DNA of 64,000 nucleotides from a candidate division WOR-3 bacterium (GTDB lineage: Bacteria; Hydrothermota; UBA3073). Positions 10,733 through 21,859 of the stretch are shown piece after piece (the first letter of the stretch is position 1; each line of letters opens with the position of its first letter). The stretch is taken from positions 26,065-90,064 of the forward strand of contig JAUWGP010000003.1 in assembly GCA_030606335.1 (NCBI GenBank), in the 5' to 3' direction. The notes below the pieces were generated by a model. It did not search any database. It was not told the DNA's origin and saw nothing but the letters and a program-made list of their open reading frames with translations. The position numbers and the translations under genes were made by a program.

Positions 10733-10761
10733 TTGCAAAATTAAAAAATCTGTGGTATAAT
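10733..10761 (+). promoter_or_regulatory. sigma70-like promoter upstream of hsdR (TTGCAA-N17-TGgTATAAT)
   Basis: -35 ttgcaa at 10733-10738, 17-nt spacer, extended -10 tggtataat at 10753-10761, about 24 nt upstream of the hsdR ATG. Confidence 0.45.
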
Positions 10762-10784: not shown

Positions 10785-13133
10785 ATGGAAAAATTTAATA
10801 TGCATCTCAGCGAAGCAGATACAAGAGCAAAATTAATTGACCCCGCTCTCCATCTTTCTGGATGGACAGAAGACCTTGTAAGACGTGAAGAAACTGAGAG
10901 AGGTATTGATATTATAGATGGAAAACCACGCAGAAGAAGAAGGGGACGAATAGATTATATTCTACGCATTAAAGTTAATATTAACTCACAACCCATCGCA
11001 GTTGCTTTAATAGAAGCTAAGAAAAGCGATAACCCACCTGATAAAGGACTCGAACAAGCAAAGAAGTACGCAAGACTAAATAACGTACCTTTTGTATATT
11101 CTTCCAATGGTCATCTCTTTGTGGAATATGACAACTTTACAGGTAAAACTTCTCACCCGAATTCTTTAGAAAAGTTTCCTACACCATTTGAACTACGACA
11201 ACGCCATGAAAAAGGGATTGGTATTTCACTTGATAAAGAAAATGCAAAGCCACTTCTTATCCCGTATCCAGGAGGTGAAGCAAGCCGTCGTTATTATCAG
11301 GATGCAGCAATTCGTGCTACACTCGAGAAAATTATACAGGGAAAAAAACGGATGCTCCTATTCCTTGCTACAGGCTCCGGGAAAACCTTCATTGCGGTTC
11401 GTCTTTTGAAGAAGATTGCAGATGCTGGGCATTTACATCGTGCTTTATTTCTTTGTGACAGGGATGAACTCCGAAATCAGGGACTTTCAGCATATCAAAA
11501 TATTTTTGGTGCTGATGCTGCTCCTGTATCTACTGCAAATCCACAGAAAAACGCAAGAATTTTAATAGCAACATATCAAACTCTTAATGTAGCAGGCGAG
11601 AACGAAGATGCTAAATTCTTACTCGATAACTATCCTGAAAACTATTTCAGTCATATAATAATCGATGAATGCCATAGGAGTGCCTGGGGTAAATGGAGTA
11701 TCGTGCTAAAAAGAAATTCCGATGCAATTCAAATAGGACTTACAGCCACTCCACGTTACTGGGAGGGTGGTAGTAAGGAGGAAAAAAAAGTAGACAAAGA
11801 GATAACTGCTAACAACCTTCAATATTTTGGCGAACCAATTTACGAATACTCAATGTCACAAGGAATTGAAGATGGTTATCTCCCTGCTTGTGAGGTGATA
11901 AGACGCGATGTGAATCTCGATATAATAGGTGTCACACGAAATGATATTAAAGTATTGGGAGCAAGAGATGCTACAACAGGTAAGCAACTTACACCCGACG
12001 AAACCCGTGAGATATACGAAGCTACATCCTTTGAGGATATTATTCAATTGCCTGACAGAGTAGAAACAATGTGTAAAGACCTTTTTAAAATGTTCCTTCA
12101 AACGGGTGGACCTCACCAGAAGACAGTTATTTTTTGTGTGCGTGATACCCATGCAGATGCCATTGCCGCTGAAATAAATAATCTTTATGCTGAGTGGTGT
12201 GATAGAAATAAGCAAAAAAGATATGAGCCTTATGCATTCAAATGCACTGCTTCTGTGGGAGGAAGCAAATATATATCAGATTTGCGTAGCTTAGAGCGAA
12301 GTCATTTTATCGCTACTACAGTTGATTTAATAACTACAGGAGTTGATATACCAATATTACGTAATGTAGTATTCTTTAGATATATCCGTTCTCCAATATA
12401 CTTTCAACAAATGATGGGAAGGGGGTCAAGAATTCATCTTCCTACAAATAAATTGATGTTTCGGGTTTATGATTATACGGATGCTACAAGACTGTTAGGA
12501 GAAGAGTTTAAGTCAAAACCCTCACCCACACGAGAAAAAAAGGAAACAGAAGAGGGAGAAAAAGAAAGAATAATCCGAGTAGAAGGATTTGATGTTCGAA
12601 TTAATCCTGCCGGAACTTATATTGTCACTGAAAAAGAAGGAAGATTATCAATGGTTACAGTAGAGGAGTACAAGCAGACTATTGCAGAGCACTTGGTTGA
12701 AAATGTTAAAACATTAGACGATCTTCGTCATAGATGGATAAATCCTGAGGAACGTGGAGAGCTTATAGATTCCCTTCCCGAAGACGGACGAGGAATAAGA
12801 ATGCTGCAGGAACTTCTTAATCGAAAAGAATATGACCTTTATGATTTAATGGCAGAAATCGGGTTTGGTGTATCCCCTAAAAGTCGTGAGGAAAGAGTTG
12901 AAGCCCTTCAATATAAACATGCTGACTGGTTTAAACATTTACCCTCAGAAACAGCAAAAACATTGTTTGCACTTGCAAGGCAATTTGAAAGAGGCGGTAC
13001 TGAAGAATTAGAAAACCCGTATGTTTTCAATGCTCCTGATGTTGTTAAAGCGGGTGGACATCAAGCTTTAAAGGTGCTTGGTGGACCAAAAGACATTATT
13101 ATTGAGATGAAAAGGAGGTTATTTGCAGCCTGA
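10785..13133 (+). CDS. hsdR: Type I restriction enzyme R subunit (EcoEI-like size class)
   Basis: N-terminal HsdR signature MHLSEADTRAKLIDPALHLSGW; helicase motif I LATGSGKT and motif II IIIDECHRS; 782 aa. Confidence 0.9.
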   Translation: MEKFNMHLSEADTRAKLIDPALHLSGWTEDLVRREETERGIDIIDGKPRRRRRGRIDYILRIKVNINSQPIAVALIEAKKSDNPPDKGLEQAKKYARLNNVPFVYSSNGHLFVEYDNFTGKTSHPNSLEKFPTPFELRQRHEKGIGISLDKENAKPLLIPYPGGEASRRYYQDAAIRATLEKIIQGKKRMLLFLATGSGKTFIAVRLLKKIADAGHLHRALFLCDRDELRNQGLSAYQNIFGADAAPVSTANPQKNARILIATYQTLNVAGENEDAKFLLDNYPENYFSHIIIDECHRSAWGKWSIVLKRNSDAIQIGLTATPRYWEGGSKEEKKVDKEITANNLQYFGEPIYEYSMSQGIEDGYLPACEVIRRDVNLDIIGVTRNDIKVLGARDATTGKQLTPDETREIYEATSFEDIIQLPDRVETMCKDLFKMFLQTGGPHQKTVIFCVRDTHADAIAAEINNLYAEWCDRNKQKRYEPYAFKCTASVGGSKYISDLRSLERSHFIATTVDLITTGVDIPILRNVVFFRYIRSPIYFQQMMGRGSRIHLPTNKLMFRVYDYTDATRLLGEEFKSKPSPTREKKETEEGEKERIIRVEGFDVRINPAGTYIVTEKEGRLSMVTVEEYKQTIAEHLVENVKTLDDLRHRWINPEERGELIDSLPEDGRGIRMLQELLNRKEYDLYDLMAEIGFGVSPKSREERVEALQYKHADWFKHLPSETAKTLFALARQFERGGTEELENPYVFNAPDVVKAGGHQALKVLGGPKDIIIEMKRRLFAA

Positions 13134-14034
13134 AAAGGAGATATTTGATTTTCTTGTTGAAAATGCAATATACCCTATGATTAGTAAGAAGGGTAAGGTC
13201 TTCTTTAAATATCCGAAGAAAGGAATGTTAACTGAGGCTAAAGCAAGAGAAATTATTGAACAATTGGATATTAAGACCAGAAATGACTGCAAAAAATTAA
13301 GGGAAAAAATCAGAAACCTGAGATCTGCATTCAGAGAAAATCGTCCTATAAGCAAATGGATTAAAGAGGAAAGACCAAGGGAGATGCTGGTTAAATACGG
13401 TCCCGAGTTCCTCCCTTTATCAAAACTTCTTGCAATAATATTAAGGATAGGAAGGGAAGGAATAAGTGCAGAAGAACTATCAAAAAGGTTATTGAATAAG
13501 TTTGGTGCATTAAGGAAAATAGATACTGCAACAATTTCTGAGATACGTGAGATAGAAGGAATAGGTCTTGCAAAAGCAGCACAAATAAAAGCTGCACTTG
13601 AACTTGGTAAAAGGCTATATAAAGAAACTGCTGTAAGGAAGAGAAAGATAACAAAACCAGATGAACTTATTGAGTATGTAGCAGAATATTACGGTCCTTA
13701 TCTAAGGGACTCTGTTAAAGAGTTTTTTTATGTCATACTTCTGGATATAAAAAATAAACCTATTGATAACGTGGAAATAAGTAAGGGTAGTATAAATGCA
13801 AGTGTGGTAGATCCAAAGGATATTGTAAAAGAAGCAACTATACGGTCAGCCTCGTCAATAATTTTGGTTCATAATCATCCATCAGGTGAGACAGACCCAT
13901 CTGAAGAGGATAAAAGGTTAACAAAATCAATTATAGATGCCTGTGAACTCATTGATATAAAGGTATTAGACCATATAATCATTGGAAAAAATCAAGAAGA
14001 CTATTTTAGTTTCGTAAAGAACGGATTGATATAA
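13123..14034 (+). CDS. radC: RadC-like JAB/MPN-domain protein with an N-terminal extension
   Basis: ERPREMLVKYGPEFLPLSKLLAIILRIGREG, HhH motif IEGIGLAKAAQI, JAMM motif LVHNHPSGETDPSEEDKRLT. TTG start with AAGGAGG 5 nt upstream; overlaps the hsdR stop by 11 nt. Confidence 0.8.
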   Translation: MQPEKEIFDFLVENAIYPMISKKGKVFFKYPKKGMLTEAKAREIIEQLDIKTRNDCKKLREKIRNLRSAFRENRPISKWIKEERPREMLVKYGPEFLPLSKLLAIILRIGREGISAEELSKRLLNKFGALRKIDTATISEIREIEGIGLAKAAQIKAALELGKRLYKETAVRKRKITKPDELIEYVAEYYGPYLRDSVKEFFYVILLDIKNKPIDNVEISKGSINASVVDPKDIVKEATIRSASSIILVHNHPSGETDPSEEDKRLTKSIIDACELIDIKVLDHIIIGKNQEDYFSFVKNGLI

Positions 14035-14050
14035 TAGAGATTATTTTATT

Positions 14051-15526
14051 ATGAAAAAATATAAAATATTCGTAAGTGGCGTTCAGAGAGAGCTCAAAGA
14101 GGAGCGGTTTGCAGTAAAAGAAATCATCACTCTGAACACTTTTTTAAAGAAATACTTTGATGTCTTTCTTTTTGAGGACCTGCCAGCCAAAAGCAAGCCA
14201 GCAGAAAAGGTCTACCTTGGAAAAGTCTCGGAGAGTGATATCCTGCTATTGTTATTGGGAAAGGAGTATGGACAACCCAGTCCTGATGGTCTTTCAGCTA
14301 CAGAAAGGGAATTTAGAAAGGCTGTGGAACGGAATTTGAAAATCCTGGTTTTTTTGAGAGGAGAAGATGACTCTACCAGAGACAGGCGGGTTAGAAATCT
14401 TATACGGGAGATAAAAAGACCGGGCAGTGGATATACTTATGATGAATTTAATGGTACGTCCGATTTAAAAGAATGTGTTTTCAATAGTCTTGTAGAACTC
14501 CTGGAGGATGATGGTATTCTTGCCAGGCTCCCCTTCGATTCTACAATTTGTGAAGAAGCAACTTATGAAGACATAAATGAAGAACTGGTAGAGAACTTCC
14601 TGAAGTATAGAGCAATAAAACTAAAAGTGGAAGTTCCTGAAATACCCATAAGAGATTTCTTAGTAAAGACTATTAAAGCGGTCCGGGAATTAGACGGAAT
14701 CTTTAAGCTAACTAATGCAGCGATTCTTTTCTTTTGTGATTATCCTCAAGAATTCATTTCTCAAAGCAGTATAAAGATAGCAAGATACAGGGGGAATTCA
14801 AGGATAGAATTTATTGACTCACAGGAACTTACTGGTCCATTCTATAAAATAATTGATGATTTAGAGATATTCTTTAAAAGAAATACCCGATTAGCCAGCA
14901 AGATTGTGGAGTTTAAGAGAGTGGATATTCCCGAGTATCCCTTTGAGGCAATAAGAGAAGGAATAGTCAATGCAATGGCTCACAGAGATTATCTCCGCAT
15001 TGGTTCTAATATTCAGATGGATATCTTTAACGATAGAATAGAGGTCACCAGCCCCGGAGGACTTCTTCCAGGGTTGGACATTAAAAATCTGGAAGGGGTT
15101 CATGAGACGAGAAACAAAAGGATTTGCAAAATCTTTCACGAAACGAAAGATATGGAAAGATATGGGACTGGTATTACTAAAATGAAGAATTGGATGACAG
15201 AACACGGTTTGAAGCCGCCAGTAATAACTCAACCAGGTGATTTCTTCAGAATTAATTTTTATGGTCCGGGTGATAAGATATTAGATTTAGTTCCCAATAT
15301 ACCCGAAGAAAGACAAACAGATTTGAAAAAATTGGGCTTAAATAACAGACAAATAGAAGCATTAAGATTGATGGTAAATGAAGGGAAAGCCTTAACAAAC
15401 AGAAAATACAGAGAATTGTTTAACGTTAGCAATCAAACATTCGTTAGAGATATGCGACTACTGTCCAAGTTGGAATTTGTCACTTCCGAAGGTAAAGGTC
15501 GGTCTTTGCAATACAAAGCAAAATAA
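14051..15526 (+). CDS. DUF4062 / AlbA_2 (divergent AAA) / HATPase_c_4 protein with C-terminal HTH (Schlafen-like 'RecG-related' regulator family)
   Basis: N-terminus KIFVSGVQRELKEERFAVKEII...ILLLLLGKEYG matches the DUF4062 pattern. The middle has AIREGIVNAMAHRDYLRIGSNIQMDIFNDRIEVTSPGGLLPG (HATPase_c_4). The C-terminus has an HTH (NNRQIEALRLMVNEGKALTNRKYRELFNVSNQTFVRDMRLL). Confidence 0.6.
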   Translation: MKKYKIFVSGVQRELKEERFAVKEIITLNTFLKKYFDVFLFEDLPAKSKPAEKVYLGKVSESDILLLLLGKEYGQPSPDGLSATEREFRKAVERNLKILVFLRGEDDSTRDRRVRNLIREIKRPGSGYTYDEFNGTSDLKECVFNSLVELLEDDGILARLPFDSTICEEATYEDINEELVENFLKYRAIKLKVEVPEIPIRDFLVKTIKAVRELDGIFKLTNAAILFFCDYPQEFISQSSIKIARYRGNSRIEFIDSQELTGPFYKIIDDLEIFFKRNTRLASKIVEFKRVDIPEYPFEAIREGIVNAMAHRDYLRIGSNIQMDIFNDRIEVTSPGGLLPGLDIKNLEGVHETRNKRICKIFHETKDMERYGTGITKMKNWMTEHGLKPPVITQPGDFFRINFYGPGDKILDLVPNIPEERQTDLKKLGLNNRQIEALRLMVNEGKALTNRKYRELFNVSNQTFVRDMRLLSKLEFVTSEGKGRSLQYKAK

Positions 15527-15774: not shown

Positions 15775-16458
15775 GTGGAGGTGTCGTTAATGCTTAATCT
15801 ACAGAGAGGAATTCCAATCGAAGATGGAGATTTGTTTATCTTAGATACAAATCCATTCAGATTTTTGTATCTGGCAGCGGAAAGCCTAATCAAAGATGCA
15901 GAGCAAGCTGCAACCAAAAATAAGCATCGGGTTGAAATTAATCATTCTATTGGAGCACTTGTGGTGCTTCTTCTATCTACCGAAGCACTCATAAACAGAG
16001 TGTATGAGTGTTTCCTTAGAAGTAAATTCCCCAGACAGATATACGAAGAGATTATGGGTAAATGGTCTCTCACAATGAAATGGTATTTTGCTCCTCTGAT
16101 TTATAAATCTGGTGGTAACAATAAAACCTTTGATGTTAAAAAAGAACCCTGGCAATCTTTTTCTGAACTGAAAAAGATCAGGGATTATTTTGCTCACCCA
16201 AAGCCAGCCCAATTTCCCTTTACAGTATTAGATGCTAAAAAAAAGATCTTGGATGTTAATGAGGGCGTTATACCAAGATGGCCCCAAACAACAATTCCTA
16301 AAGACTTGAACCATTTTCGTTGGAAGGATGCTCAAACGGTTTTGGAAATTATTAATAAAATGATTGATAAATTAGACTCCTTCATGGGGGGAACAATCAA
16401 AAAGGACGATTGGTATTTAATAGAACAAATGAGTAAATATGAAAAAGCAGCTGAATAA
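15775..16458 (+). CDS. hypothetical protein embedded in the Type I RM locus
   Basis: About 222-227 aa. GGAGG at 15777-15781 precedes the ATG at 15790; the track ORF starts at GTG 15775. No recognisable motif. The 3' end overlaps the hsdS start by 20 nt. Confidence 0.5.
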   Translation: MEVSLMLNLQRGIPIEDGDLFILDTNPFRFLYLAAESLIKDAEQAATKNKHRVEINHSIGALVVLLLSTEALINRVYECFLRSKFPRQIYEEIMGKWSLTMKWYFAPLIYKSGGNNKTFDVKKEPWQSFSELKKIRDYFAHPKPAQFPFTVLDAKKKILDVNEGVIPRWPQTTIPKDLNHFRWKDAQTVLEIINKMIDKLDSFMGGTIKKDDWYLIEQMSKYEKAAE

Positions 16459-17581
16459 AGAAATACTTCCACCCGACTGGCGATGGGTGAAGTTGGGGGA
16501 AGTATGTGAGTTTGCGTATGGTTCAGGATTACCGGTACGAGATAGATTGAAGGGTCTCATTCCTGTATTTGGCTCAAACGGTGTTATTGGTTACCATAAC
16601 ATGGCAATTACTCAAAGTCCTACAATTATAATTGGTCGCAAGGGTTCAATTGGTCAAGTGAATTCTTCAGAATCTCCATGTTGGCCAATTGATACAACTT
16701 ACTACATTGACGAATCCAAAACCTCCTGTTATCTACATTGGCTGTACTGGTTACTTAAGTACCTGAGACTAGACGAACTTAATAAAGCGACTGGGGTGCC
16801 AGGTTTGAATCGTAATGACGCCTATAGTCAAGTTATCCCCCTCCCTCCTCTTTCTGAGCAGAAGCGCATCGCTGCAAAAATTAAGGAGTTAATGCAGGAG
16901 GTAGAACATGCCCGAACAGCCTGCGAAAAGCAATTAGAGGCAGCAAAAGCCCTTCCCTCCGCATATCTGCGAGAGGTCTTTAAAAGCGAAGATGCAAAGA
17001 AGTGGGAGAGTAAGAGGTTGGGAGAGGTTTGTGAGACTACAAGCGGAGGCACTCCATATAGAGGGAATAAAGAGTATTTTGACGGGGATATTCCCTGGGT
17101 GAAATCGGGAGAATTGGAAGACAATTACATCTATGACACGGAAGAGAAAATAACAGAATTAGGTCTTAAAAATTCTAGTGCTAAAATTTTGCCTATGGGA
17201 ACATTGTTAATTGCAATGTATGGAGCAACTGTTGGAAAGTTGGGGGTCTTGAATATTTCCGCTACTACTAATCAAGCTATTTGTGCCATTATTCCAAATT
17301 CCAAAGCCTCGACCAATTTTCTCTTTTTCTTTTTCATGCATTTTAGAAGAGACCTGGTCAATAAATCTTATGGAGGTGCTCAGCCAAATATCAGTCAAGA
17401 ACTAATAAAAGAAACACACATTCCTTTTCCGTCTATAAAAACCCAGCATCGTATTGCCGCTGAACTCAAAGAAAAAAAAGCAGAGGTAGATAAACTTCAC
17501 TCATCCATTGAAAGACAATTTGAAGCAATAAACGCCTTGCCACAGGCAATTTTAAGGAAGGCATTCATAGGGAAGTTGTGA
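16439..17581 (+). CDS. hsdS: Type I restriction-modification specificity subunit (two target-recognition domains)
   Basis: Two half-repeats, each starting with a conserved motif (LPPDWRWVKLGEVCEF / ESKRLGEVCETTSGGTP), each followed by a conserved coiled-coil spacer (LPPLSEQKRIAAKI..., FPSIKTQHRIAAEL...). Confidence 0.9.
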   Translation: MKKQLNKEILPPDWRWVKLGEVCEFAYGSGLPVRDRLKGLIPVFGSNGVIGYHNMAITQSPTIIIGRKGSIGQVNSSESPCWPIDTTYYIDESKTSCYLHWLYWLLKYLRLDELNKATGVPGLNRNDAYSQVIPLPPLSEQKRIAAKIKELMQEVEHARTACEKQLEAAKALPSAYLREVFKSEDAKKWESKRLGEVCETTSGGTPYRGNKEYFDGDIPWVKSGELEDNYIYDTEEKITELGLKNSSAKILPMGTLLIAMYGATVGKLGVLNISATTNQAICAIIPNSKASTNFLFFFFMHFRRDLVNKSYGGAQPNISQELIKETHIPFPSIKTQHRIAAELKEKKAEVDKLHSSIERQFEAINALPQAILRKAFIGKL

Positions 17582-17634: not shown

Positions 17635-18702
17635 ATGAATCTAAATAAACGGTCAAATAGCTTTTCCCAAGAAAATATTACTCGCATTACAGAATTCTTT
17701 AAAAATCAGCAACTTCCTGAACCTCATTTACATCTTTTTAAGAGTGTGGTTTGGAAGGGATATCGTTGGAGAGCAATTTGGAACACTCTCCATTATCGTC
17801 CACTTCATGAAACATTTCATGAATTTATCATATATATTTTGAAAGCAACTTTTGGTGAAAAATGGCGCAAAGAGCAGATGAATTTGTCTGAAGAAGAAAG
17901 ACATATTCTTATTCGCTGGGTTAAATCTTATGGTGAATGGAAAAAAGCTACTCATAATGATGAAAAGAAAGAAGGCGAGTATATCTATGGTGCTATCCCA
18001 AGTGGTGAAGTTATGGCACTCCATTCATTTGCTTATGATATATATTGCCTCCAAGTAGTCAATAAGTTACCAAACTTCTTAGTAAATAGACTGAAGAATA
18101 AAAATGAATTCCAAGGTGCAAGATATGAAATAGCTGTGGCTGCTATTATCGCTCGAGCGGGCTTTGCTATAACCTTCCTCGATGACAAGGTTAAAAGTCA
18201 AAAGCATTGTGAATTCGTCGCCAAGAATAAATATTCTGGGTTACAAATTGGAGTTGAAGCTAAAAGTCGAAGAAGGAAAGGTGTACTCCATGAAAAAGGA
18301 AATTTGAATTACTCTTCAGTTGTAAGAGGAGACATTGAGAACCTTTTTGAAAAGGCTCTTACTCAGAGGCCCAAGAACATGCCATATTTTATTTTCATCG
18401 ACTTGAATGTAATGCCTACCCCAGACCCAGAAATTCCCCCTGACAAAAAACCATGGTTTAAGGATATAAAATTGCTATTAGATAGATATGGGATACCTTC
18501 TAAAGAAAATCCAGATCCGTTTAATGCATTGGTGTTGACTAATTTTTCTTATTATTATTTGGGAAACTTACCTATTACTCATTTGGGAGAATACGGTCTA
18601 ATCATCTCTGAAATTCCAGAATACCCGTGCAAAGATATGCAGGCTATAAGTGAAATATGGGAAAGTTTAGGACGGTATTCTCATATTCCGAAAGATGTAT
18701 AA
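17635..18702 (+). CDS. hypothetical protein between hsdS and hsdM; possible PD-(D/E)xK-like nuclease core (inference)
   Basis: 355 aa with no P-loop. The segment ARYEIAVAAIIARAGFAITFLDDKVKSQKHCEFVAKNKYSGLQIGVEAKSRRRK fits a helix-E, strand-D, strand-ExK arrangement. Confidence 0.45.
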   Translation: MNLNKRSNSFSQENITRITEFFKNQQLPEPHLHLFKSVVWKGYRWRAIWNTLHYRPLHETFHEFIIYILKATFGEKWRKEQMNLSEEERHILIRWVKSYGEWKKATHNDEKKEGEYIYGAIPSGEVMALHSFAYDIYCLQVVNKLPNFLVNRLKNKNEFQGARYEIAVAAIIARAGFAITFLDDKVKSQKHCEFVAKNKYSGLQIGVEAKSRRRKGVLHEKGNLNYSSVVRGDIENLFEKALTQRPKNMPYFIFIDLNVMPTPDPEIPPDKKPWFKDIKLLLDRYGIPSKENPDPFNALVLTNFSYYYLGNLPITHLGEYGLIISEIPEYPCKDMQAISEIWESLGRYSHIPKDV

Positions 18703-18725
18703 CCTTATACCCTAAATTATCTTAT

Positions 18726-20231
18726 ATGCGAAAAAATTCTCACAAAATAACCACACCACAATCTCTGAATGCCTATATCAAGGGTATCTGTGATATTATG
18801 CGGAGGTCGGGAAGAGCTGGGGCTCTCCAGTATGTGCCTGAACTTACCTGGATGCTCTTCCTCCGTATTCTTGATGAAAAAGAGGAGATAGAAGTAGAAT
18901 ATACTAAAGCATTAGGTAGAGAATTTATTCCTTCACTCCAATATCCATATCGCTGGCGAGATTGGGCTGCTCCTGATGGAGAAAAAAGAAAGGAATTACA
19001 AGAGGGAACATTTGGAAGATTTATGAGCTTCGTCGATGGAGACCTGCTCCCTACCCTCAAAAAATTAAAGGATAAACCTGGTGCAACTCCTCGTCAGAAG
19101 GTTGTCAGTCAAGTCTTCTCCTCTTTTGAAAAAACGGGTATTGATACCGAACGCAATCTTTTAGATATACTTGATAAAATTCATGAACTCTCCTTGGAGC
19201 AAGTTGAAGAAACCCACATGTTCACACTCTCCCAGGTCTATGAGGGACTGATACAGAAAATGGGTGAGAAAAACAACGACGGTGGACAGTTTTTCACACC
19301 AAGAGAGGTTATTCGTGTTATGGTTAAAGTGATTGACCCGAAGATTGGAGAAACCGTTTATGACCCCTGCTGTGGAACGGGTGGGTTTCTGGCTCAGGCA
19401 TATCTACATATGAATAAAAATGCAACAATAGCAGATGACATTGAAACCCTCAAGATTAGAACCTTCTACGGTAGAGAGAAAGAAAATCTTGTTTACCCCA
19501 TTGTCCTTGCAAATCTCGTGCTTCATGAGATAGATGAACCACATATATGGCATGGCAACACGCTAACAGGTCATGAGGTTTATGGTGGACTTTTCCAAAG
19601 TGCACCCGTCCTCTTTGATGTAGTCCTCACTAATCCTCCCTTTGGTGGTAAAGAGGGAAAAGATGCTCGGACTCATTTTGCCTATAAAACCAGCTCTACA
19701 CAGGTATTGTTCTTGCAACATGTCATTGATAACCTTAAAAATAGTGGCAGGTGTGGAATCGTAATGGATGAAGGTGTTTTATTCCGCACAAATGAGAAAG
19801 CCTTTGTCCAGACTAAACGCAAACTCTTGAGTGAGTGCAACCTCTATTGTATTGTAAGTCTTCCTCCCAAGGTATTCCTTAATGCTGGTGCAGCAAGTAA
19901 AACCAATCTACTTTTTTTCACTAAAGGTGAACAAACTAAAGAAATATGGTATTATGACCTATCTGATTTAAATGTAACAAAAAGGCAGCCCTTAACTATG
20001 CATCACTTTGAGGAGTTCTTTAAATTATTACCAGAAAAAAAAGAAAGTGAGCATTCCTGGAAGGTTCCAATAGAAGAAATAGAAGAGAAAAATTACGACA
20101 TAAAAGCAGTAAATCCAAACAGAAAAATCGAGGAAGACACAAGAAGCCCGCAAGAGCTATTAGCAATTATTGAGTCCCAGCAAAAAGAAATCACAAACGC
20201 ATTATCAAAATTGAAAGATAAAGGCTTGTGA
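18726..20231 (+). CDS. hsdM: Type I restriction-modification N6-adenine DNA methyltransferase subunit
   Basis: HsdM N-domain (GALQYVPELTWMLFLRILDEKEE), GTGGFL SAM-binding motif, NPPFGG catalytic motif. The start is taken at the ATG at 18726, after the stop of the upstream gene. Confidence 0.9.
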   Translation: MRKNSHKITTPQSLNAYIKGICDIMRRSGRAGALQYVPELTWMLFLRILDEKEEIEVEYTKALGREFIPSLQYPYRWRDWAAPDGEKRKELQEGTFGRFMSFVDGDLLPTLKKLKDKPGATPRQKVVSQVFSSFEKTGIDTERNLLDILDKIHELSLEQVEETHMFTLSQVYEGLIQKMGEKNNDGGQFFTPREVIRVMVKVIDPKIGETVYDPCCGTGGFLAQAYLHMNKNATIADDIETLKIRTFYGREKENLVYPIVLANLVLHEIDEPHIWHGNTLTGHEVYGGLFQSAPVLFDVVLTNPPFGGKEGKDARTHFAYKTSSTQVLFLQHVIDNLKNSGRCGIVMDEGVLFRTNEKAFVQTKRKLLSECNLYCIVSLPPKVFLNAGAASKTNLLFFTKGEQTKEIWYYDLSDLNVTKRQPLTMHHFEEFFKLLPEKKESEHSWKVPIEEIEEKNYDIKAVNPNRKIEEDTRSPQELLAIIESQQKEITNALSKLKDKGL

Positions 20232-20812: not shown

Positions 20813-21859
20813 ATGTTTAAACCAAAATTCACAATCACCAATAAAATAAACAATTTCCTTCTTGAAATTGAGAGGGCAAGAGGATTTTTGGAGGCGGCAA
20901 AGTTAAAGGAGGCATGGATAAAGGATATGCAAAGTGAAGCACTTATCCTTGAAGCGCACCACTCTACACATATTGAAGGAACTCAACTGACCTTATCCCA
21001 GGCTCAAAGAATTCTTACCGGCAAATCTGTAAAGGGCATTAGGAAAGATGATCGTCAAGAACTCCTGAACTATAAAGAGGCAACTGATTTTGTCTCCGAA
21101 TACCTGGGGAAGAAATTAGAAATCACGGAGGATTTAATTAAGCAGATACACAAGATTTTAGTTAAAGATGTCAGGGGTGGAACCCTTGAGCCAGGAAGAT
21201 ATAGAAAAGTTCAGAATTATGTAGTCAACTCCTTGACAAGAGCAATAATTTATATTCCGCCCCCTCCAGAGGAAGTTCCTAAACTAATGAAAGAATTCGT
21301 TGAATGGTTAAACGTAAAAAAGAAGATATCACCTGTGCTCATGGCAGGGATCAGTCAATATCAGTTTGTTGACATTCATCCCTTCTTAGATGGAAACGGA
21401 AGGACTGCTCGTGTTTTATGTACGCTCATTCTTTATCAGAATGAATATGATTTTAAAAGGCTTTTTTCATTGTCCGAATATTACGACAAAAAACGCCGGA
21501 GGTACTACGACGCCATTCAATCAGTGAGAGAGAATAATATAGATATGACAGAATGGCTCGAATATTTTACAGAAGGACTGAAAAATCAATTGATAGAAGT
21601 AAAAACAAAGGGAGAAAAGGCAATTAAAAAGGAAGTTCTCATTGAGAAGGCTAAAAGATTTAACTTAAACGAGCGTCAACAGAAAATTTTATTACATTTA
21701 TTGGAGCAAAAGCGGATTTCGGTTGAGGAAATCAGACAGAAATATAATTTGGTTAGAAGAACGATTCAACGTGATTTCTCAAAATTGGTTGAGTTAGGTC
21801 TAATAAAGGAAATAGCAAAAAGCAAGACAGACCCTACAAGGTATTATGAATTACTGTGA
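20813..21859 (+). CDS. fic: Fic/DOC family protein (AMPylator-type) with C-terminal winged-helix domain
   Basis: Canonical Fic motif HPFLDGNGRTARVL; 348 aa. Confidence 0.9.
   Translation: MFKPKFTITNKINNFLLEIERARGFLEAAKLKEAWIKDMQSEALILEAHHSTHIEGTQLTLSQAQRILTGKSVKGIRKDDRQELLNYKEATDFVSEYLGKKLEITEDLIKQIHKILVKDVRGGTLEPGRYRKVQNYVVNSLTRAIIYIPPPPEEVPKLMKEFVEWLNVKKKISPVLMAGISQYQFVDIHPFLDGNGRTARVLCTLILYQNEYDFKRLFSLSEYYDKKRRRYYDAIQSVRENNIDMTEWLEYFTEGLKNQLIEVKTKGEKAIKKEVLIEKAKRFNLNERQQKILLHLLEQKRISVEEIRQKYNLVRRTIQRDFSKLVELGLIKEIAKSKTDPTRYYELL

Follow-up and report, generated by a model that had tools for sequence, protein, structure and literature searches.

We describe a version of RadC that carries an extra N-terminal domain and is encoded in the restriction operons of dozens of unrelated microbes. 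Comparative sequence evidence indicates that its gene, radC-ext, is a recurrent, co-expressed, optional accessory of one mobile type I restriction-modification (R-M) cassette, a copy of which lies in the 64,000-nt stretch of DNA analyzed here (the window). As an accessory gene of this cassette, radC-ext may act on HsdR-DNA complexes, a reading to which we assign a probability of about 0.4; such action would probably serve as self-protection. No published description of the hsdR-radC arrangement was found in the literature on RadC, type I restriction, defense, or KlcA.

RadC is found in most bacteria, under a name that is acknowledged to be misleading. Neither an activity nor a substrate has been established for the family (PMC5512222, PMC11981726), and a subfamily linked to hsdR offers a concrete, testable handle on RadC function. 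RadC-ext lies behind a motor/nuclease gene in about two thirds of cases, and RadC-like genes also occur beside anti-type I genes on mobile elements.

The restriction cassette in the window

The island contains a type I R-M system, with an HsdR bearing both a PD-(D/E)xK nuclease motif and an SF2 motor, and with hsdS and hsdM at the same locus (Table 1). The cassette layout is hsdR-(slot)-hsdS-(slot)-hsdM, with RadC-ext in the first slot. HsdR matches the Pfam families ResIII, SWI2_SNF2, HSDR_N, and EcoEI_R_C, the last of these as its C-terminal domain, as well as PADLOC REase_I (5e-95); its nuclease motif reads D57...E77-A-K79, and 15 RadC-linked orthologs preserve this motif as well as those of the helicase. 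The true start of hsdR may be the ATG at 10800; a database protein 100% identical to HsdR is annotated at 777 aa. Likewise, hsdM probably begins some 24 codons downstream of the start in Table 1, its homologs aligning from residue ~24. The promoter-like site ahead of hsdR is likely the operon promoter, an assignment that is only suggestive because the regional total of such sites does not exceed the shuffled expectation.

In most relatives, the counterpart of the DUF4062/HATPase_c_4 gene encodes a Schlafen/AlbA_2-type protein. Of the 24 dereplicated R-M-linked loci for which sufficient sequence was available, 16 have this third gene after radC. An orf355 homolog fills the same slot in a related locus (L092). 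The Fic protein of the window, by comparison, shares only 34% identity with the Fic found in the same place in a sister genome (L081) and is variable cargo. The genes flanking the island are housekeeping genes, and no second radC copy was found within the window.

Table 1. Features of the island, in window coordinates
Feature	Positions	Strand	Description
Promoter-like site	10733..10761	+	TTGCAA-17-TATAAT, extended TG; ahead of hsdR; 10/12 consensus matches
hsdR	10785..13133	+	Type I restriction subunit, 782 aa; TGA at 13131-13133
radC-ext	13123..14034	+	303-aa RadC-family protein, three domains, TTG start
hsdR/radC overlap	13123..13133	+	11 nt, from radC TTG to hsdR TGA
N-terminal extension	13123..13377	+	aa 1-85; subfamily-specific alpha-beta-beta-alpha-alpha domain (predicted)
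UPF0758_N/(HhH)2 domain	13348..13581	+	aa 76-153; predicted DNA-binding domain
RadC-type JAB/MPN+ domain	13672..14025	+	aa 184-301
Promoter-like site	13952..13979	+	TTGATA-16-TATAAT, 11/12; consensus scan; within radC 3' end
DUF4062 + HATPase_c_4 gene	14051..15526	+	Third gene of conserved left arm; Pfam
orf227	15775..16458	+	Variable cargo; no family match (Pfam, PADLOC, NCBIfam)
hsdS	16439..17581	+	Specificity subunit; Pfam Methylase_S 1e-45, PADLOC Specificity_I
orf355	17635..18702	+	Variable cargo; no family match (Pfam, PADLOC, NCBIfam)
hsdM	18657..20231	+	Methyltransferase subunit; Pfam N6_Mtase 3e-66, HsdM_N
Fic/DOC + HTH protein	20813..21859	+	SoFic-like; island right edge; Pfam Fic, PADLOC SoFic 1.7e-71

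A RadC subfamily with an additional domain

The product of radC-ext belongs to the RadC/UPF0758 family by its JAB domain, its UPF0758_N/HhH domain, its JAMM motif, and its equivalog score. Pfam recognized UPF0758_N and the RadC JAB domain (PF04002; 6e-40, 136 bits, cutoff 22.1), and the RadC JAB protein PDB 2qlc was matched at 6e-29. Two whole-protein RadC models, the NCBIfam equivalog NF000642 (225 bits against 180, aa 86-302) and TIGR00608 (213 bits against 134), were exceeded, and both cover only aa 84-303. The HNHPSG sequence (aa 250-255; nt 13870-13887), whose presence in a RadC-type JAB protein had been predicted, was confirmed as part of a full, intact JAMM motif consisting of E218 (13774-13776) and H250-x-H252-x7-S260-x2-D263 (13870-13911). 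All five residues are invariant columns among 28 homologs; in a larger alignment of 89 sequences, E218 is conserved in at least 90%, and H250, H252, S260, and D263 remain invariant.

What departs from the canonical two-domain layout (~210-230 aa, with nothing before UPF0758_N) is the presence of 85 extra conserved residues. This extension, ~80 residues long and conserved in the 89 homologs, was modeled by AlphaFold2 with a pLDDT of 86; it has no Pfam family (only noise matches at E >= 0.004), and fold searches gave no significant match. Among 1.84 billion representative clusters it is carried by 30, always at the N terminus of proteins of no more than 338 aa; neither HsdR-RadC fusions nor other architectures containing it were found there, and N-extended homologs were absent from the 72,556 plasmids of PLSDB. 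In bootstrap trees built by a light distance method, RadC-ext forms a clade apart from canonical RadC (90% bootstrap). These comparisons indicate a distinct RadC subfamily in which the new N-terminal domain is followed by (HhH)2 and then by a JAB domain with an intact JAMM motif. The original prediction had assigned the protein to the RadC-like type that recurs on mobile elements near anti-restriction genes; that assignment fails, as the protein is full length, with HhH and JAB, and has the subfamily-specific N-terminal domain besides.

The hsdR-radC junction

The TTG start, the AAGGAGG Shine-Dalgarno sequence, and the 11-nt overlap with hsdR were all as predicted. The AAGGAGG lies at 13112-13118 (+), inside the hsdR codons K-R-R, and its spacing of 4 nt from the TTG is a little under optimal; almost every related hsdR 3' end has GAGG or GGAGG at the equivalent position. 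The overlap follows from the hsdR TGA ending at 13133 and the radC TTG beginning at 13123. No other ATG, GTG, or TTG separates the conserved N-terminal motif from the in-frame upstream stop (ending at 13110). An alternative start at the downstream ATG (13177, codon 19), with a promoter of its own, would have contradicted the predicted coupling and was rejected: it would cut off F10, N14, I16, Y17, and P18, each at least 90% conserved among the 89 homologs, and a consensus scan revealed no promoter-like site ahead of it. The same scan, which is weak evidence, found no promoter-like site on the + strand from 13951 back to 12403 and no terminator-like site in the hsdR-radC interval. The pair thus has the properties of coupled genes: a stop/start overlap, a Shine-Dalgarno sequence within the upstream gene, and neither promoter nor terminator detected between them. 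We infer that radC is co-transcribed with hsdR and that its translation is coupled by the stop/start overlap, within a chain of genes joined to one another by ATGA junctions.

The TTG/11-nt form is common to the close relatives L081, L082, L091, L092, and L096, and it is a lineage-specific replacement of an ancestral 4-nt ATGA overlap. In the lineage of the window, loss of the ATGA was accompanied by a move of the radC start to a TTG further upstream, which has a strong Shine-Dalgarno sequence; the rebuilt start has a GGAGG, and the conserved N terminus was retained. The window has also lost the usual ATGA junction between radC and the next gene, for which reason the promoter-like site within the radC 3' end may drive the downstream genes.

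While translational coupling was upheld as a prediction from the overlap and the Shine-Dalgarno sequence, the functional link that had been drawn from it was not, as RadC is not the only gene to begin at the ATGA junction. The 3' end of hsdR is conserved as '...gcagcATGA' and starts whichever gene comes next, be it RadC, Schlafen/HATPase_c_4, or hsdS, and radC itself usually ends in a further ATGA junction. Because these junctions are generic, coupling shows co-expression along an operon chain, not a dedicated relationship between the R subunit and RadC.

Recurrence, mobility, and optional presence of radC-ext

We surveyed how often radC lies 3' of hsdR elsewhere. An EcoEI_R_C-type hsdR was directly 5' in all four of the radC relatives at 70-95% identity that were looked up. 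After dereplication of RadC-ext at 95% identity (n = 55 clusters), hsdR was immediately 5' in 31 clusters and absent from that position in 17, the context being not determinable in seven. The 31 hsdR-linked lineages comprise 26 with the ATGA overlap, two with the TTG/11-nt form, and three with a 5-nt spacer. A type I gene was near only one of 77 canonical radC loci in a control set, which was drawn from a genome-contig scan with the full-length alignment; matches in that scan were mostly canonical RadC and included only three loci of the subfamily. Linkage to hsdR is therefore enriched, at ~65% for RadC-ext against ~1% for canonical radC. The arrangement recurs across many phyla (at least 31 dereplicated lineages, among them an archaeon) and is not unique to this genome; uniqueness would have spoken against the original prediction. 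In other loci RadC-ext follows hsdM (L128, L148, and L161) or a type III-like res gene (L156).

Pairwise identities of HsdR and RadC are correlated (r = 0.75, 105 pairs). Across phyla, HsdR (68-84%), HsdM (75-81%), and RadC (60-90% identity) are conserved, while other cargo turns over. The type I R-M cassette spreads horizontally between bacterial and archaeal phyla. A cassette built as a chain of ATGA-coupled modules, with defense cargo slotted in register, bears on the assembly of defense islands and on the question of how a restriction system can survive its entry into a host whose DNA is unmethylated.

RadC is nevertheless dispensable for this R-M clade. It is missing from five of eight sampled close HsdR relatives (73-77% identity) and from both plasmid outgroups, and RadC-less HsdRs are nested among the RadC-linked ones (L176 groups with L094 and L095 at 100% bootstrap). 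Sequence comparison revealed no HsdR residues separating RadC-linked from RadC-less enzymes. Conversely, full-length RadC-ext remains after deletion of hsdR, with pseudogenized hsdR 3' remnants in L113, L142, L131, L156, and L115, and the deepest RadC-ext branches, L001 (Archaeoglobus), L002 (WOR-3), and L003, are solitary genes in housekeeping contexts. The protein is therefore useful without HsdR.

Proposed role and alternatives

In the reading that we prefer, restriction itself would work without RadC-ext, whose targets would be restriction-motor products bound to DNA. Most likely the protein would be a metallo-hydrolase tethered to DNA, removing or inactivating HsdR complexes that are stalled or translocating on host DNA, with the N-terminal domain as a docking module. 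It would thus be a self-encoded, host-independent counterpart of the restriction alleviation mediated by ClpXP, helping the cassette to establish in very different invaded hosts and limiting autoimmunity. In type IA and IB systems, both establishment and protection once DNA is damaged require that ClpXP degrade translocating HsdR (PMC12707154). All biochemically characterized JAB domains are peptidases (PMC5512222), and on mobile elements the RadC-type JAB domain occurs in fusions with ArdC-N or is paired with ArdB/KlcA anti-type I modules (PMC3239186; PMC12458937). Counting against a peptidase role is the argument that RadC-type JAB domains lack the ubiquitin-tail groove and are nucleic-acid enzymes (PMC5512222).

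From our own data we counted in favor of self-protection the linkage to hsdR, the co-inheritance, the rebuilt start (as selection on expression), the intact JAMM motif with (HhH)2, and the operon order, hsdR being first and hsdM last; we counted against it the generic ATGA junctions, the optional presence of radC, its persistence without hsdR, the solitary deep branches, and the lack of an HsdR signature. Regulation or processing of the R subunit by RadC, as originally proposed, is a reasonable hypothesis.

A serious alternative, if one we consider rather unlikely, is that RadC-ext hitch-hikes: it would do the R-M-independent job of canonical RadC, having landed once in the post-hsdR slot and been carried along by linkage. 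The same slot holds unrelated cargo (SLFN/HATPase_c_4, OLD-like, TIR, SMODS, KAP NTPase, HEPN/NTase, and Fic), ATGA coupling is generic, RadC is optional within the HsdR clade, and a single capture could account for most hsdR-linked copies; moreover, solitary RadC-ext genes are intact, and some show lineage-level synteny, e.g., a neighboring HAD hydrolase gene in L162 and L163. Such passive carriage fits poorly, however, with a linkage so far above that of canonical radC, and with a junction retained in 31 lineages whose proteins share only 60-75% identity, all other cargo positions having turned over. Nor does it sit well with the rebuilding of the radC start codon once the ATGA was lost, with the additional positions beside hsdM and a type III res gene, or with decaying islands, in which radC is the gene that remains.

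That RadC-ext is instead an accessory nuclease, its metal-dependent JAB domain being guided by (HhH)2 to trim or degrade DNA ends or loops made by HsdR and so to boost restriction, seems unlikely to us. Iyer and Aravind proposed the RadC JAB domain to be a nucleic-acid enzyme. In DinG fusions it replaces the 3'-5' exonuclease of close relatives, it also occurs joined to HhH and primase domains, and its fold is the deaminase-like one seen in enzymes acting on nucleotides (PMC3239186; PMC5512222); the (HhH)2 domain confirmed here and the location of radC directly 3' of a motor/nuclease gene agree with this. Yet HsdR retains its PD-(D/E)xK motif in all RadC-linked loci, and close relatives without RadC restrict or at least have R, S, and M genes that are all complete. 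In addition, no RadC has been reported to act as a nuclease, and peptidases are what a structural comparison brings up (PMC11981726). Substitution for a degenerate HsdR nuclease was rejected: the nuclease and motor motifs of HsdR itself are conserved, and therefore RadC is not a replacement nuclease.

An extension of the preferred reading to the whole class, which we regard as speculative and quite unlikely, would make RadC-type JAB proteins DNA-tethered peptidases of restriction motors (HsdR, possibly type III Res). Host cassettes would then carry RadC-ext as a built-in, host-independent alleviation and establishment factor, docking on HsdR through its N-terminal domain, and the short RadC-like forms used by mobile elements together with ArdB/KlcA or ArdC-N would be the missing catalytic partner in anti-restriction. 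If true, this would explain why KlcA/ArdB is active in vivo but not in vitro and would finally say what one of the most widely distributed uncharacterized bacterial proteins does.

Very improbable, finally, is a PrrC-like guardian that is checked by, or monitors, the R-M system and responds to its attack by phage or plasmid anti-restriction proteins, for instance through cleavage of these proteins or by triggering a secondary response: there is precedent for an hsd-embedded gene that senses R-M inhibition (PMC12707154), RadC-like genes adjoin anti-type I proteins on mobile elements (PMC3239186; PMC12458937), and the island is rich in other defense cargo, but RadC-ext has no toxic effector domain, resembles neither PrrC nor RloC, has no PADLOC match, and occurs in solitary copies without any R-M genes.

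Comparison with known systems

With canonical RadC/UPF0758 (E. coli YicR, B. subtilis YsxA; PDB 2qlc), RadC-ext has in common UPF0758_N/(HhH)2, JAB, and the JAMM motif. It differs in adding a conserved N-terminal domain of ~80 aa limited to its subfamily, and in that about two thirds of its members reside in type I R-M operons, against ~1% of canonical radC genes. The alpha-beta-beta-alpha-alpha order predicted for this domain was compared with that of the beta-hairpin docking domains of NRPS/PKS subunits (TubC, EpoB, and AerJ).

Prophages, ICEs, and plasmids encode short RadC-like JAB proteins (YeeS/YkfG/YfjY type), which also have a RadC-type JAB domain and are likewise linked by context to type I restriction (PMC3239186, PMC12458937). 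They consist of JAB alone or are fusions with anti-restriction modules, and they are carried by the invading element, whereas RadC-ext is full length, has the new N-terminal domain, and is encoded in the restriction operon itself. The window locus is not a mobile-element RadC/ArdB anti-restriction module, and ArdB, KlcA, and ArdC domains were not detected by Pfam in the eight island proteins.

Type I loci of Campylobacter contain "restriction-linked ORFs" (rlo), accessory genes between hsd genes. The prrC gene of the EcoprrI hsd locus is likewise placed, and its link to the enzyme is physically and functionally proven (PMC12707154). PrrC, an ABC-ATPase with an anticodon nuclease, belongs to an unrelated family, while RadC-ext, although embedded among hsd genes, is a JAB protein without an evident guardian effector, also exists alone, and is not a guardian of the PrrC/RloC type.

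EcoAI and EcoEI (type IB) share with the window HsdR the HSDR_N nuclease, the SF2 motor, and the EcoEI_R_C tail. Its best NCBIfam model, EcoAI/FtnUII NF046051, scored 483 bits, under the cutoff of 550, and identity to annotated EcoAI-family enzymes in plasmids is only 27-31%; the cassette also differs in its order, R-(cargo)-S-(cargo)-M, and in the ATGA-coupled junctions of the cassette family. The closest proposed analog in function is restriction alleviation by ClpXP in type IA and IB systems, in which HsdR is proteolyzed on unmodified host DNA, so that the chromosome is spared and new hosts can be colonized (PMC12707154). ClpXP, an AAA+ serine protease, belongs to the host and has its genes elsewhere; RadC-ext is a candidate JAMM metalloenzyme encoded by the cassette itself.

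The hsdR-radC junction and the RadC-ext protein

The predicted architecture, in which radC begins at a TTG behind a perfect Shine-Dalgarno sequence and overlaps the hsdR stop by 11 nt, was confirmed. hsdR encodes a type I restriction subunit with ResIII, SWI2_SNF2, HSDR_N and EcoEI_R_C domains and a PADLOC REase_I match (5e-95); among NCBIfam models it fits EcoAI/FtnUII best, with a score of 483, below the cutoff of 550. The TTG is the sole canonical start between the in-frame upstream stop and the conserved N-terminal motif, and homologues, 300-310 aa long, align over 98-100% of the window RadC. Residues F10, N14, I16, Y17, P18, S21, G24 and K25 are conserved in these homologues, and all of them either precede the internal ATG at 13177 or lie close to it; a consensus scan of the + strand from 12403 to 13951 found no promoter-like site; a true start at that downstream ATG, served by its own promoter, is therefore unsupported.

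The product is, as originally predicted, a RadC-like JAB protein with an intact HNHPSG: it carries a UPF0758_N/HhH domain (aa 76-153) and a RadC JAB domain (aa 184-301), scores above the NCBIfam RadC equivalog cutoff over aa 86-302, and has a complete JAMM motif (E218...H250-N-H252-P-S-G-E-T-D-P-S260-E-E-D263). Residues 1-85 fall outside every RadC model and matched no Pfam family. When 1.84 billion cluster representatives were scanned in full with HMMER, only 30 clusters had this segment, always N-terminal and in proteins no longer than 338 aa. Neighbour-joining trees, built from alignments of modest size, place the N-extended proteins (RadC-ext) in a clade apart from canonical RadC (90% bootstrap). 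All examples come from uncultivated lineages, mostly anaerobic, and RadC-ext was absent from 72,556 plasmids searched.

Coordinates of features in the window and in compared loci (L numbers)
Feature	Locus	Position	Strand	Remark
hsdR	window	10785-13133	+	TGA stop 13131-13133
Shine-Dalgarno AAGGAGG	window	13112-13118	+	4 nt before TTG
radC ORF	window	13123-14034	+	TTG start; 303 aa
Sigma-70-like promoter	window	13952-13979		TTGATA-16-TATAAT (11/12)
Third cassette gene	window	14051-15526
Third cassette gene	L083	10924-12282
Third cassette gene	L087	10912-12273
Third cassette gene	L173	10346-11701
ORF	window	15775-16458		227 aa
ORF (orf355)	window	17635-18702		355 aa
Fic/DOC + HTH gene	window	20813-21859		PADLOC SoFic 1.7e-71
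Fic gene	L081	16659-17798		34% identical to window's
Canonical radC, hsdR, hsdM	L074	4783-9412
Full cassette	L086	6772-18642
radC-only locus	L112	9184-13452
Type III-like region	L156	4428-16652
UPF0758_N fragment	L174	7560-8010		92 aa
Mobility genes	L180	5609-6951, 15874-16056
SbcCD-like pair	L086	1-4869
SbcCD-like pair	L087	4247-7629
SbcCD-like pair	L133	6442-10735

Linkage of hsdR and radC in other genomes

All four relatives looked up (70-95% identity) have a 775-778 aa EcoEI_R_C-type hsdR directly 5' of radC, and sppA and transglutaminase flanks are common to the window and its sister genome. With the N-extension alone as a metagenome query, 80 more loci were recovered, and dereplication at 95% identity left 55 RadC-ext clusters, on metagenomic contigs that are short. 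The gene lies directly 3' of hsdR in 31 of these, with a 4-nt ATGA overlap (26 clusters), a TTG with an 11-nt overlap (2) or a 5-nt spacer (3); hsdR is not immediately 5' in 17, and 7 contigs are too short to tell. By comparison, a type I gene was found within 10 kb at one of 77 canonical radC loci in reference genomes, a control in which type I genes were detectable only by BLAST with the window's proteins. The linkage is thus not peculiar to this genome, and it extends across many phyla. At the single canonical locus (L074) hsdR lies 62 nt after radC and is followed by hsdM, a gene order opposite to that of the window, and this hsdR, with 25% identity to that of the window, is from another family.

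The hsdR 3' end, '...aaGAGGaggttgtttgcagcATGA', is conserved whether it precedes radC, a Schlafen/HATPase_c_4 gene (L173) or hsdS (L174, L177), and radC itself usually ends in '...ataaaATGA', the ATG of which starts the next gene, suggesting that the operon is a chain of ATGA-coupled genes with radC inserted in register. Co-translation had been taken to indicate a link to the R subunit; co-expression in an operon stands, but the coupling is generic, as the ATGA junction starts other genes too, and it does not indicate a dedicated R-RadC relationship. In the lineage formed by the window and five other loci (L081, L082, L091, L092, L096), the ATG of ATGA is gone and the frame shifted by a 1-nt deletion; radC starts there at a TTG that lies in frame 7 nt further upstream and has GGAGG as its Shine-Dalgarno sequence, and the conserved N-terminus is kept. 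Such turnover of the start codon argues that radC expression is under selection. The junction between radC and the next gene has also been lost in the window, where radC ends in '...TTGATATAA' and the next ATG lies 17 nt downstream; together with a near-consensus promoter-like site within the radC 3' end, this suggests that the downstream genes may have acquired their own promoter.

RadC-ext and hsdR are separable

A reciprocal sample comprised eight HsdR look-ups (73-77% identity), at loci some of which were picked because they showed no obvious RadC partner. RadC-ext was present in three (L175, L179 and L178, the last a minimal cassette, hsdR-radC-hsdS-hsdM) and absent from five (L173, L174, L176, L177, L180); counting six further HsdR matches, for which co-location is presumed because their contigs are exactly as long as those of RadC-ext matches, about 9 of 14 long contigs carry it. 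The RadC-less HsdRs are nested among the RadC-linked ones (L176 with L094/L095, 100% bootstrap), and no HsdR residue separates the two groups. Among cultured organisms the nearest HsdR relatives are plasmid-borne, one in Carboxydocella (60% identity, R-S-M order) and one in Meiothermus (55%), and neither system has RadC.

Solitary RadC-ext genes are likewise nested among R-M-linked ones (L109, L121 and L126 with L086, 100%; L153 and L159 with L144, 98%), and in some of them pseudogenised hsdR 3' remnants precede the radC ATG, of about 50 nt with in-frame stops in L113 and L142 and shorter, about 20 nt, in L131, L135, L115 and L156 (about 24 nt). AP_endonuc_2 and LMF1 flanks are common to L086, a full cassette plus SMODS and SocA_Panacea genes, and L112, which holds only radC and a 23S_rRNA_IVP gene; their relatives L109 and L126 have radC and hsdS, with hsdR gone. 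This series looks like stepwise island decay with radC retained and, with the remnants and the nested solitary genes, points to repeated loss of hsdR from loci where radC remained intact. The deepest branches are solitary and in housekeeping contexts (Archaeoglobus L001, WOR-3 L002, L003).

Other placements include positions directly after hsdM (L128, L148, L161) and, in L156, after a type III-like mod-res pair (N6_N4_Mtase, 638 aa; ResIII helicase, 841 aa). The L156 region also holds a YhcG PDDEXK gene. Two proteins encoded downstream, one of 825 aa that contains sigma70_r4 and one of 772 aa with a PAPS-reductase domain, may be parts of a DNA-modification or Dnd-like system. In L174 the stretch just upstream of the RadC-less hsdR holds a UPF0758_N fragment of canonical type that shares 31% identity with aa 78-165 of the window RadC. 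One copy of a repeat of about 35 nt (gtttaccatatactgg[c/a][g/c]gaaa...ggggggaaa) stands on either side of it, and the whole resembles a small element that was inserted or is decaying.

Spread and cargo of the cassette

The taxa represented include Stahlbacteria-like bacteria, Dehalococcoidia, Pelotomaculum, Thermodesulfobacteriota, Syntrophales, WS2, Dadabacteria, Caldisericaceae and one Methanospirareceae archaeon. Cross-phylum identities are unusually high (HsdR 68-84%, HsdM 75-81%, RadC-ext 60-90%) and the housekeeping genes around cassettes differ from genome to genome, which points to horizontal spread of the whole cassette. HsdR and RadC pairwise identities correlate (r=0.75 over 105 non-independent pairs). 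Among sampled loci, only the RadC-less L180 has obvious mobility genes, its cassette adjoining a tyrosine integrase, an HTH_17/MerR excisionase-like gene and a resolvase fragment; the other cassettes lie between housekeeping genes, with no such genes there.

The third cassette gene, which can follow hsdR directly where radC is absent, keeps its HATPase_c_4 C-terminal half and swaps its N-terminal domain (DUF4062 in the window, L081 and L097-L100; SLFN_AlbA_2 in most other loci), and matches PADLOC pAgo-associated models (Aga_SIR2-PNTD, 4e-17). The 227- and 355-aa ORFs within the island had no match in Pfam, NCBIfam or PADLOC and are possibly uncharacterised defence cargo; an orf355 homologue (81% identical) occupies the same slot after hsdS in L092. 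A Fic/DOC gene closes the island, in the window and at the same place in its sister L081. Between these two, hsdS is only 35% identical whereas hsdR, radC and hsdM are 94-97% identical, and the right arm is exchanged independently of the left. SbcCD-like pairs (Metallophos plus SMC/AAA_23) adjoin several RadC-ext loci, some R-M-linked and some solitary, with AddB also in L086; this may be coincidence or a shared tie to DNA-end processing.

Possible function

RadC-ext is a co-expressed member of the operon; its metalloenzyme motif is intact, it has an (HhH)2 DNA-binding domain, and its association with ATP-dependent restriction genes is strong but non-obligatory. Our tentative reading, to which we give a probability of about 0.4, a figure that includes the weaker claim of a functional link, is that RadC-ext would act on the DNA-bound products of the restriction motor, clearing or inactivating HsdR complexes engaged on the host's own DNA. 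It would then be a cassette-encoded analogue of restriction alleviation by ClpXP, which type IA and IB enzymes depend on both when they become established in a new host and when DNA has been damaged (PMC12707154). The position of hsdR first and hsdM last in a phylum-jumping operon fits this reading, as do the dispensability of radC and the ties of RadC-type JAB domains to anti-type-I functions on mobile elements, where they are fused to ArdC-N (PMC3239186) or occur in RadC/ArdB modules (PMC12458937); survival of RadC-ext without HsdR would fit a more general clearing of proteins from DNA.

That radC is instead a hitch-hiker in a cargo hot spot is less probable but a serious alternative; the generic coupling and a gene optional in the HsdR clade and separable from hsdR speak for it. 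An accessory nuclease, in line with the proposal of Iyer and Aravind on RadC domains, is still less probable; a replacement nuclease is excluded, as HsdR keeps D57...E77-A-K79 and all motor motifs. An essential fourth subunit is likewise excluded by the RadC-less relatives and solitary copies. A PrrC-like guardian, for which only precedent speaks, is very improbable.

Comparison with known systems

The function of RadC is unknown (PMC5512222, PMC11981726), and RadC is nowhere mentioned in a 2025 review of R-M biology (PMC12707154). Our literature search found neither an hsdR-radC operon nor a RadC with an N-terminal extension described in print. The rlo genes are accessory genes embedded in type I loci. 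So are prrC (PMC12707154) and embedded type IV systems; what is new here is a RadC subfamily with a new domain, as a recurrent component of one apparently mobile type I cassette.
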